Shown here one piece after another: positions 27,602 to 31,470 of a stretch of DNA of 64,000 bases. The stretch's first letter is position 1. Each line of letters opens with the position of its first letter. Where the stretch lies: assembly GCA_048937405.1 (NCBI GenBank), contig JBHLNF010000006.1, forward strand, positions 64,001 to 128,000. The letters are read 5' to 3'. The position numbers and the translations under genes are program-made. The stretch is from Promethearchaeota archaeon (GTDB taxonomy: Archaea; Asgardarchaeota; Lokiarchaeia; Sigyniarchaeales; SOKP01). The notes under the pieces are model-generated. The model was not told the DNA's origin. It saw nothing but the letters and a program-made list of their open reading frames with translations, and searched no databases.

Positions 27602-28108
27602 TTAAGGGATAAATCCATTTTCTAGAATTATTTCGGTTGCAAGTTTAGCAATATTACCTACTAGAGTTGAACAATGCTCACCCATATCTGAGTTAAATGC
27701 TTCTTCCAAATCTTTAGGATTCCAGAAATCATAAGTCCTTCCTACCAGTTTCTCTTGAACATCATGACATCTACATGATCCATATTCCTTTACATATTTA
27801 TCATGTAATTCTTTAACTAATTTGTAAGATTTCAACGGTTTCATCCTATCTTTAAAATCTTTACGTTCTCTCCCAAATAAATATCCGATTACCATTGAAG
27901 CTCCTACTAAGGCCCCACATGATCCGTTCCCTGTCAACCCTAATCCATCTGCTAAACCACTTGCCGCTTTAAAAACATCTTCACTCCATATCCCCAATGA
28001 ATCAAGAACGGCTGCTGCAGTAGATTGAGCACATCCTGTACATTCTAATTCATTTTTTTTTCCTAACTCAAAAGCCTTAAGAATAATTTGCTCATTAGTT
28101 TCCTTCAT
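27602..28108 (-). CDS. C-GCAxxG-C-C family putative redox protein
   Basis: GCAQS, GSCGALVGA, GSCRC and a late Cys. Confidence 0.9.
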   Translation of the reverse strand: MKETNEQIILKAFELGKKNELECTGCAQSTAAAVLDSLGIWSEDVFKAASGLADGLGLTGNGSCGALVGASMVIGYLFGRERKDFKDRMKPLKSYKLVKELHDKYVKEYGSCRCHDVQEKLVGRTYDFWNPKDLEEAFNSDMGEHCSTLVGNIAKLATEIILENGFIP

Positions 28109-29733: not shown

Positions 29734-30759
29734 ATGAGATTCATTACAGGATTAAAAAATCTGTCAAAAAAGAAATTATTATTAACAATTATTATAATTT
29801 TCATCATTTCTTGGATTTTATTGCTTTTTGGGGCAATTTTATCAAATGACACGTTTACTGGATTTATCTTCATTTTTATATTAGTTTTAGCAGCATTTAC
29901 TTTTATACTATTAATTTTTTCCCTTTTTTTCAATCTTGATGAAAGAGCAACATTTGTAGTAATAACATCATTCATCTTATTTTTACCTATTGCGTTCGTT
30001 TTTAATAATTTTATTTGGACGTTTTTTGGTTTCTGCTTTGTTGCTAATCAGATATTTACTGCTTTCTTTGCGTTCAAATTTTGTATGGATACATCTACTA
30101 CAGTAGATGATTATTTATATAGGAAGAAGGGATCAAGGATATTTATGAGAATATTAGAATTCGTTGTTTTTCTAGTTCTTACAATGTTATTCGTTATTTT
30201 CATTATACGACAATTTAAAAATTCGAGTAATCCAGACGTTCAAGCTTTAGGAGTTGTCCTCGAAAGAATTTATCTTATTCTAATAGTGATTGATACTATA
30301 TTATTTGTATTTGGAATACTACGATTTATCCCTACTAAGAAATTTCCTGCTTACATTTCTCTTTTCTATCTCTTAACATTTATCTATATGTTCTATTTAG
30401 TTATAAGTCTTTCATTAAAATATAGCCCTGATAACGCTTATAATTGGCTTTCATTTATAATTGATTTATTTATCTTCTTGTATCTTCTTGGTTCTATATT
30501 CGAACGAGTTGAGTATATCAAAGAAAGTATTAAAATATTAGGTGCAGATACAATTGCATTATTTGTAATATTAATGAAATTAATTGTACAAATCGTTGAT
30601 ATTATATTGATTTCTGGCAAGCCCCTAAACCCTGATGCAGAAAAGTTTATACTTGGTTCCATTTTTGTTTTATTACTATGTTTTGCTCTCTTTACTCTAT
30701 TGATAGGTCTCTATAAGATTTTCGCTCATAAAGAAGGGAAAAAGTCAAAACATTCATAA
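29734..30759 (+). CDS. Multi-pass membrane protein
   Basis: About 10 hydrophobic segments. Confidence 0.75.
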   Translation: MRFITGLKNLSKKKLLLTIIIIFIISWILLLFGAILSNDTFTGFIFIFILVLAAFTFILLIFSLFFNLDERATFVVITSFILFLPIAFVFNNFIWTFFGFCFVANQIFTAFFAFKFCMDTSTTVDDYLYRKKGSRIFMRILEFVVFLVLTMLFVIFIIRQFKNSSNPDVQALGVVLERIYLILIVIDTILFVFGILRFIPTKKFPAYISLFYLLTFIYMFYLVISLSLKYSPDNAYNWLSFIIDLFIFLYLLGSIFERVEYIKESIKILGADTIALFVILMKLIVQIVDIILISGKPLNPDAEKFILGSIFVLLLCFALFTLLIGLYKIFAHKEGKKSKHS

Positions 30760-30853
30760 TTTCTATTAAGTAAGCATACGCTTCAGTCAAAATTTTTAAA
30801 TATTATTTATTAATATATAATAAATTGGCATATTAAATTAAAAAGGATAAGTT

Positions 30854-31099
30854 ATGAGTGAATCTGATTTAACTGAATTAAGAAAGGGAAAAACCAATAA
30901 GATTCTTATACTAGTACTAATAATAATAGGATTTGGAATGATTATTACAGTTCTTATTATCTTGTACATAAATATTGGAATTGATACTGGAGGATGAGGT
31001 TGTGCACTTATTGGTTTCATAAAGATCATGTCTACCCAAAATTCTTTAAACAATGATTATATCGAACTAATTAAAAAAATTGGCACATTTCTCATATAA
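30854..31099 (+). CDS. Candidate small membrane selenoprotein (81 aa if TGA at 30995-30997 is read as Sec)
   Basis: MSESDLTELRKGKTNKILILVLIIIGFGMIITVLIILYINIGIDTGG-TGA-GCALIGFIKIMSTQNSLNNDYIELIKKIGTFLI-TAA; AGGA upstream; SECIS-like hairpin just downstream. Confidence 0.6.
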
Positions 31100-31160
31100 T
31101 TACCAAATGGAATGATTCTTTCTAAAAAATGCTAGTAGAAAGATGACTTACCTTGTAAGG
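31100..31160 (+). promoter_or_regulatory. Eukaryote-type SECIS-like hairpin
   Basis: ATGA(31112-31115)-T-TCTTTCTA-AAAAATGCTAG-TAGAAAGA-TGA(31144-31146): AUGA/GA core, 8-bp perfect stem, A-run at the 5' side of the loop. Confidence 0.6.
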
Positions 31161-31317
31161 TTATTGGTAAAAAAGATCATTTTTAAAAAAAATCTCAAGT
31201 AATAAGAATTTATTATCGAGACCTTGTTTAATTAAAAAGGATGGATATTCTGTTTTTTTTAATTATAAAACATTCCATAATAATAAATTTTAAAAATCCA
31301 ACAAATCTACGTAAAAT

Positions 31318-31470
31318 ATGCCAAAAGTTATACTCGAAGTAAATGAAAAAAAGATACCACTAAAAGATTTTATGCAAGAAATGCTTACAAATATAGTACT
31401 TGGTTATTTAAATTCTACAAAAGGAGTACCGGATGATATAAAGGACATTAAAATTAATATTAATTTATAA
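31318..31470 (+). CDS. 50-aa protein resembling the small C-terminal domain of MobB-type proteins
   Basis: MPKVILEVNEKKIPLKDFMQEMLTNIVLGYLNSTKGVPDDIKDIKININL*, matching V.L.VN.K.IPL..F....L.N...G...SLKG. Confidence 0.7.
   Translation: MPKVILEVNEKKIPLKDFMQEMLTNIVLGYLNSTKGVPDDIKDIKININL

Follow-up and report, generated by a model that had tools for sequence, protein, structure and literature searches.

Does the in-frame UGA at codon 48 of a short reading frame in a Lokiarchaeial genome end a 47-residue peptide, or does it specify selenocysteine (Sec) in a longer membrane protein? The frame lies on the plus strand of a 64,000-nt window (the whole stretch analysed here, positions 64,001 to 128,000 of contig JBHLNF010000006.1 in the Promethearchaeota archaeon assembly GCA_048937405.1), whose own numbering is used for coordinates unless another contig is named. 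A sequence-only reading of the window had proposed that the frame encodes one transmembrane (TM) helix followed by DTGG-TGA-GGT-TGT and continues for 33 codons to a TAA ending at 31099, and the sequence is exactly so. The open reading frame (ORF) occupies 30854-31096 (81 codons) with the TAA at 31097-31099; its first 47 codons run through DTGG, then come TGA, GGT and TGT, and the frame is open for 33 codons past the TGA. Translated through the UGA, the product would have a basic N-terminus (residues 1-16), a strong TM helix (about 17-40), a polar, Gly-containing hinge (NIGIDTGG), then Sec48, Gly49 and Cys50, and an amphipathic hydrophobic tail (51-81). Judged by sequence comparison, this is very probably a genuine and previously unlisted selenoprotein gene; the orthologues, the SECIS (Sec insertion sequence) element, the Sec machinery of the genome and the hydropathy of the protein all support the 81-residue membrane selenoprotein that had been claimed.

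Several points weigh against this conclusion. An open tail is by itself common, since 11-15% of the TGA-ended long ORFs of this genome stay open for 24-33 codons further; a single-sequence fold reached a z-score of only -1.6 against shuffles; the orthologues described below are related to one another, so that counts overstate their independence; and no SECIS-binding protein is known in Lokiarchaeia (PMC4989117). TGA is otherwise a normal stop in this genome, where it ends 490 of 3245 long ORFs and TAA ends about 70%. Because neither the open tail nor the fold is significant in the window alone, the case for Sec rests on comparison across genomes.

The UGA codon and the frame beyond it are conserved in orthologues

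Orthologues were collected by a six-frame protein search of 40 related genomes and, with a profile built from 14 members, from 399 genomes of the phylum. In the 40 relatives, the matches had an open frame of about 75-105 codons and nearly always exactly one in-frame TGA. The profile gave significant matches in 47 of the 53 genomes of the window's genus and in 23 of the 42 of a sister genus. Beyond these two, a few genomes in four other genera of their family matched, as did one more family in the class. Of the significant profile matches, nearly all carry one TGA; matches without it are weak and cover the TM segment alone. In alignments of 14 and of 30 members alike, Sec occupies the one column that never varies, and among 50 orthologues read through the UGA there is no TAA, TAG or Cys at the Sec position. 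In the layout common to the orthologues, the N-terminus is basic and is followed by a hydrophobic helix some 23 residues long and by a short polar stretch ending in a run of Gly; the U is usually followed by G, A or P and then by C, and the hydrophobic tail beyond typically ends ...LI. This tail is 11-35 codons long and ends at the SECIS in most members.

Were the UGA an ordinary stop, the gene would encode a TM peptide of 47 residues with GG at its end, the hairpin downstream would be a kink-turn with another role (L7Ae binding, mRNA stability or termination), and the open tail would reflect chance or constraint on the RNA. Gene callers do end the protein at the TGA, giving entries of 39-54 aa, tails of this length do arise by chance at the frequency given above, and some lineages have almost no tail. 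It is difficult to reconcile this explanation with some 50 diverged orthologues that never use TAA or TAG at this position, although TAA is the predominant stop in this genome. Neither does it predict the pattern of substitutions: among close orthologues, codon positions 1, 2 and 3 changed 416, 251 and 564 times 5' of the TGA and 326, 223 and 402 times 3' of it. The same codon periodicity on both sides indicates that coding continues past the TGA, where residues are conserved as well. The sequence-only reading had looked to a conserved TGA with coding sequence after it as support, and to homologues ending in TAA or TAG as contrary evidence; the former was found, and the latter were absent among these orthologues. 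The lineages with almost no tail end ...GTGTUPG*, ...GTGTUG*, ...GGTGUG*, ...CTUG* or ...GGGGUC* (asterisk, stop). They retain the TGA, one or two sense codons past it and the downstream SECIS, and selection therefore appears to act on Sec insertion itself.

The position-specific counts also bear on the possibility that the real gene is an antisense ORF of 71 amino acids (30838-31053, minus strand) and the plus-strand reading its shadow. The minus-strand ORF is indeed open, as are antisense frames in some of the orthologues. Since the antisense frame shares the wobble position, a gene on that strand would leave plus-strand position 1 the most conserved, whereas it is position 2 that is most conserved, in keeping with the plus frame. 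It is also on the plus strand that the SECIS, the Shine-Dalgarno-like site, the invariant TGA and the arrangement of TM helix and charges are found, and we assign the antisense gene a probability close to nil.

A second TGA was seen in a few orthologues. At loci L042, L073 and L084 the tail stops at a second TGA that lies a few nucleotides before the AUGA core of the SECIS or abuts it; this codon is presumably the true stop, because it is too near the SECIS. In one orthologue (G209, locus L046), the second TGA comes three codons after the first, giving U-P-C-U.

A covarying lokiSECIS element lies at the stop codon

Twelve nucleotides 3' of the stop codon stands an AUGA, followed by a perfect 8-bp helix that is closed by the 11-nt loop AAAAAUGCUAG, and then by U and GA. 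G31114 and A31115 are opposite A31146 and G31145, and the predicted kink-turn combines tandem G.A/A.G pairs with a bulge of three bases (AAU). A U.U pair (31116/31144) together with the eight Watson-Crick pairs makes up a 9-position stem (31116-31124 with 31136-31144). The loop starts AAAAA and ends AG, and three of its A columns as well as the final G are invariant.

From the 78-nt regions 3' of 14 orthologues, which align without gaps, we built a covariance model, R1. The proposed fold comprises an outer helix, a 3-bp stem, the upper helix and a side hairpin, four helices in all, with the kink-turn hairpin on a three-way junction. Over its 21 pairs, 91% of the cells are paired and 12 pairs have changed on both sides; none of 500 shuffles equalled this, and sliding the partners against each other collapsed the signal. 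For the upper helix, compensatory changes were seen in five of the eight pairs, with 94% of cells paired. RNAalifold independently recovered the same helices. The AUGA/GA kink-turn core and 8-bp helix of the sequence-only reading are thus all present and conserved with covariation. The looser lower helix that it had also described proved real and conserved, as the 3-bp stem plus the outer helix, but the element ends at about 31168 and not at 31160. R1 matches 3' of 47 of the 50 orthologue loci, and in two of the remaining three an AUGA-helix-A-loop-GA hairpin could be recognized by eye; the core, whose absence from the orthologous 3' regions had been named as contrary evidence, is conserved there.

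The form of the element is that of the lokiSECIS. As defined by Mariotti et al. 2016 (PMC4989117), a lokiSECIS has an AUGA immediately before a stem of nine positions and an 11-nt apical loop, in which the first five nucleotides prefer A and the last is G, usually after A; GA follows right after the stem, and the element sits just past a coding sequence with an in-frame UGA. All of these features of sequence, stem and loop, and placement are present here, with the R1 match beginning inside the stop codon, and in most orthologues the match is placed likewise. According to the same authors (PMC4989117), existing SECIS models miss lokiSECIS elements. The Rfam result agrees: no family reached the gathering threshold anywhere in the window, and a permissive scan of 31000-31260 returned noise and no SECIS family.

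We then searched the organism's own 4.47-Mb genome with R1 and obtained nine strong matches (46-82 bits). Besides the one at this gene, four lie 0-2 nt 3' of HdrA or HdrA-VhuD genes with in-frame TGAs, one lies equally close behind a Prx-like gene (GNWUSHC) with an in-frame TGA, and three lie behind other small TGA-containing ORFs. The check by covariance model that the sequence-only reading had proposed was thus favourable, with 81.5 bits for the element itself and matches at the SECIS elements of known selenoprotein genes. As the strong matches are full-length (78 positions), the outer helix and side hairpin seem to be general features of SECIS elements in this genus. A kink-turn with some unrelated role would not be expected behind all of the R1-matched HdrA/VhuD and Prx-like genes and nearly nowhere else in 4.5 Mb, and we regard an ordinary stop at codon 48 as very unlikely. 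Comparison across genomes instead shows UGA-48 to be a predicted site of recoding by the lokiSECIS. In the proposed mechanism, the kink-turn SECIS, which begins at the stop codon and has its core about 117 nt 3' of codon 48, would direct the Sec-specific elongation factor and Sec-tRNA(Sec) to UGA-48 for insertion of Sec; the ribosome would then translate 33 more codons up to the TAA that abuts the SECIS.

The genome encodes machinery for Sec insertion

Confirmation of Sec machinery in this genome had been called for, and tRNA-Sec, SepSecS, SelD, an EFSec-like GTPase and a PSTK-like kinase were all found. SepSecS is encoded at C7:230659-231960. Directly 5' of it, at C7:230424-230576, lies a tRNA-Sec with anticodon TCA, located by BLAST with the tRNA-Sec genes of relatives; two insertions, presumably introns and each about 30 nt long, break up the gene, the first in the region of the D-arm and the second in that of the T-arm. 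The EFSec-like GTPase, about 6 kb from the tRNA-Sec/SepSecS pair, scored 231.8 bits, just under the curated cut-off, and the PSTK-like kinase 154 bits, also under its cut-off; each is the best match. SelD itself has an in-frame TGA (Sec-SelD). The general tRNA searches did not report the interrupted gene. The Rfam tRNA-Sec model returned just tRNA-Gly and tRNA-Arg below cut-off from this genome and missed tRNA-Sec, and ARAGORN listed 7-21 tRNAs in the genome, tRNA-Sec not among them, and no tRNA in the window. Across the genus, tRNA-Sec scored above the Rfam cut-off in 20 of 31 genomes.

The protein is predicted to expose Sec on a hinge at the outer membrane face

The 19-residue Kyte-Doolittle (KD) maximum of the TM helix was 2.8-3.5 in all 30 members analysed. 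The flank N-terminal to the helix is net positive in 28 of the 30, and the linker after it has a charge of 0 to -3 and no enrichment in Pro. The tail is amphipathic, and in nearly all of the 30 members its hydropathy is under TM grade. By the positive-inside rule, this charge pattern predicts that the N-terminus is inside and Sec at the outer membrane face. An AlphaFold2 (AF2) model made with 30 sequences has a helix at residues 3-42, a hinge at 43-49 with GG-U-G, and a second helix at 50-80. We thus picture the product, from hydropathy, the positive-inside rule and this low-confidence model, as a bitopic membrane protein of 81 residues with a cytoplasmic basic N-terminus and one TM helix. Sec would be carried on a flexible Gly hinge, probably at the outer membrane surface, and the amphipathic tail helix probably lies on the membrane or folds back onto the TM helix.

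A basic n-region, a hydrophobic core and a polar, Gly-rich stretch superficially resemble a signal peptide or a double-glycine leader. With G-G at -1/-3, cleavage just before Sec would yield a secreted or modified selenopeptide that starts with Sec. A core of about 23 residues with the KD values given above is, however, what one typically sees in a signal anchor, in contrast to a signal that is cleaved; the tail-less variants would release a peptide of just 2-3 residues; and no conserved peptidase, transporter or modification genes are found nearby. We therefore consider a cleaved leader very improbable and retain the uncleaved membrane anchor. A lipobox, a class III (pilin) signal and a double-glycine leader were each considered and rejected, as the motifs fit poorly.

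What such a protein might do is suggested by the residues around Sec. The UxC motif to which the sequence-only reading had drawn attention is common but not universal: among the 50 members about 33 have U-x-C, seven have C-x-U and three have other spacings. In 40 of the 50, a Cys lies exactly one residue away from Sec, N- or C-terminal to it. Members switch between U-x-C and C-x-U while the gap of one residue stays the same, which suggests that the spacing is under selection, and this switch is the best hint of a redox pair. Sec48 and the Cys one residue away could form a selenol/thiol to selenenylsulfide couple, making the protein a minimal membrane-anchored thiol/selenol oxidoreductase for which extracytoplasmic disulfides, polysulfide or selenium species, or lipid peroxides would be candidate substrates.

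We put forward this Sec/Cys redox role at the outer membrane face tentatively, as a proposal that may well prove wrong. Four of the 50 members have no Cys near Sec. Cys homologues are usual, though not obligatory, for selenoproteins; here searches of 5.8 billion clusters and of 1.84 billion representatives turned up none with Cys at the Sec position, which would leave none to anchor a redox function. The predicted topology has the positive-inside rule as its single source, and confidence in the AF2 model is low (mean predicted local distance difference test score 64, below 50 in the hinge). The neighbouring genes differ between genera and appear to offer no hint of function. All of these considerations count against the functional proposal and its structural setting.

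Protein families were of no further help. In Pfam, no family matched the window protein at E <= 0.01, and a scan of 30 members at E <= 10 gave no meaningful match among the 25 of 35 families listed. Copies in sequence databases are of two kinds, namely a 'hypothetical protein' of 39-62 aa truncated at the TGA and a read-through form with W at the Sec position; on the one contig examined, the codon behind this W is a TGA translated under code 4.

The family differs from known selenoproteins

The lokiSECIS genes reported from Lokiarchaeia encode HdrA-VhuD, VhuU, Prx-like and SPS proteins (PMC4989117; PMC11227280). The present gene has the same recoding system and SECIS form, but its protein is unrelated to these families, being tiny, membrane-anchored, without Cys homologues and, unlike them, without a thioredoxin-fold, Fe-S or other Pfam match. 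Five families were listed by Mariotti et al. 2016 (PMC4989117), whose de novo SECIS-based search reported no further ones, seven Asgard families by the homology-based survey of Huang et al. 2024 (PMC11227280), and eleven archaeal families by a 2026 review. The present family is absent from the 2016, 2024 and 2026 lists, in keeping with the claim that it is unlike the known archaeal selenoproteins.

A link to eukaryotic SELENOK/SELENOS had been called speculative by the sequence-only reading, and most of the defining features of that family are missing here, the N-terminal TM helix being present. An archaeal counterpart or ancestor of SELENOK/SELENOS would make sense of the single N-terminal TM helix and the Gly run before Sec in a GGUG-like context, which are common to both, and of the several lineages that end 1-2 residues past Sec (e.g. 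...GGTGUG*); moreover, among archaea the host clade stands closest to eukaryotes. Yet the Gly stretch is merely 2-5 residues long and net negative, whereas that of SELENOK/SELENOS is long, Pro-rich and basic. Most members continue for 11-35 residues past Sec (33 in the window gene), and few lineages only (e.g. G006, G009, G020 and G183) have Sec as the second or third residue counted from the C-terminal end. The positive-inside rule predicts Sec to be outside, whereas the eukaryotic proteins are type III with a cytoplasmic Sec part. No SelK/SelS Pfam model appeared among the 25 families listed for the 30 members at E up to 10, and no eukaryote-specific selenoprotein family was found in Asgard archaea by Huang et al. 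2024 (PMC11227280). As the likeness is one of low-complexity features that arise easily, we hold common ancestry with SELENOK/SELENOS to be most improbable. Were it true, the family, then an obligate-Sec, membrane-anchored mini-oxidoreductase, would be the first selenoprotein lineage of eukaryote type to be traced back to Asgard archaea, and the tail-less ...GGxGUG* forms would show the state that eukaryotes inherited.

A separate Lokiarchaeial family of membrane selenoproteins would matter in several ways. The published lists give five to seven families for Asgard archaea and eleven for archaea as a whole, a catalogue that it extends. It is widespread in one Lokiarchaeial family and would stand apart as a membrane mini-protein that has no Cys version and is missed or truncated by every gene caller. 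By comparison, the published families are all soluble redox enzymes or subunits of hydrogenase or heterodisulfide reductase with Cys homologues (PMC4989117; PMC11227280; 2026 review). A SECIS-first search can uncover hidden genes. As a short, simple cassette of natural origin, with about 117 nt between the UGA and the core, the UGA-SECIS pair may provide a handle on how a eukaryote-like SECIS works without SBP2, and the conserved three-way junction formed with the outer helix and side hairpin may sharpen the lokiSECIS model. The protein is also a candidate for selenium chemistry at the Asgard cell surface.

Sec or Cys pairs of similar spacing are familiar from other proteins. CxU/CxC redox motifs include the C-G-U of SELENOF/Sep15, the G-C-U-G of thioredoxin reductase and the CGC peptide mimics of protein disulfide isomerase, and the protein motifs among these sit in the thioredoxin-like or flavoprotein folds of soluble proteins. 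As in the present family, the two residues are adjacent or one apart in a Gly context, but here a membrane mini-protein carries the motif in the hinge that joins its two helices, and the likeness would be one of chemistry, not ancestry. PF12669, the FeoB-associated Cys-rich membrane protein, is likewise small, with one N-terminal TM helix and a Gly/Cys-rich stretch, but has no Sec; it was matched by one of the 30 members at noise level (E = 0.14) and is an architectural analogue only.

Features of the locus, neighbouring genes and further SECIS elements

The features of the gene and of its SECIS element are collected in Table 1. Farther 5' of the Shine-Dalgarno-like AGGAT, the DNA reads as AT-rich and promoter-like.

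Table 1. Positions in the 64,000-nt window of the predicted selenoprotein gene, its SECIS element and flanking signals
Feature	Position	Strand	Basis or remarks
Shine-Dalgarno-like AGGAT	30844..30848	+	6-10 nt 5' of ATG; sequence reading
Predicted selenoprotein gene, 81 codons + TAA	30854..31099	+	sequence; same layout in orthologues; hydropathy, charge, AF2 model
In-frame UGA, read as Sec48	30995..30997	+	sole invariant protein-alignment column; TGA in every convincing orthologue
Full match to SECIS covariance model R1	31098..31175	+	81.5 bits
SECIS outer helix P1, 5' strand	31102..31107	+	pairs with 31163-31168; both-side changes in 3/6 pairs; 95% of cells paired
3-bp stem below kink-turn	31108..31110	+	pairs with 31147-31149; compensatory changes in 2/3 pairs
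AUGA core, 5' kink-turn side	31112..31115	+	U, G, A invariant, first A nearly so (14 orthologues)
Upper helix (31117-31124 with 31136-31143) and 11-nt apical loop AAAAAUGCUAG (31125-31135)	31117..31143	+	
GA, 3' kink-turn side	31145..31146	+	invariant, 14/14
Side hairpin ACCUUGUAAGGU between kink-turn stem and outer helix	31150..31161	+	conserved
SECIS outer helix P1, 3' strand	31163..31168	+	partner of 31102-31107
T5 run, possible archaeal transcription terminator 3' of SECIS	31180..31184	+	sequence reading

The gene order in the genus is MFS transporter, 341-aa membrane protein, selenoprotein gene, 50-aa protein and ARMT1-like phosphatase; the sister genus has an FGGY kinase and a TrmB regulator next to the gene. 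As no neighbour is common to both genera, the gene looks stand-alone, and its context gives no functional clue. The 341-aa protein directly 5' (29734-30759, plus strand) is a polytopic membrane protein encoded at this place, on the strand of the selenoprotein gene, in at least 23 of 30 genus loci. No Pfam or NCBIfam family matched it, and in the ESM Atlas it fell only into a hypothetical cluster specific to Promethearchaeota. Directly 3', the 50-aa ORF (31318-31470, plus strand; MPKVILEVNEKKIPLKDF...) is 68-92% identical in 27 of 30 genus loci, making it far more conserved than the selenoprotein; it bears a weak likeness (NCBIfam E = 9e-5) to MobB/FeS-domain fusion proteins in their C-terminal part. 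About 2.7 kb 5' of the selenoprotein gene, a putative redox protein of the C_GCAxxG_C_C family (Pfam E = 8e-25) is encoded at 27602-28108 on the minus strand, without an in-frame TGA.

Further SECIS matches elsewhere in the genome lie near other small ORFs. At C7:547307-547384 (plus strand), a full-length match of 45.8 bits begins 6 nt past a 158-codon ORF with two adjacent in-frame TGAs (...VHAD-U-U-ADVMKERL...), a candidate UU selenoprotein. Two matches of about 62 bits each lie 460 nt apart on the minus strand at C16:26149-26226 and C16:26610-26687, one of them 66 nt behind a 68-codon ORF with two TM segments and an in-frame TGA (...FIKS-U-GMTF...). The C16 sites look like further hidden small membrane selenoproteins.

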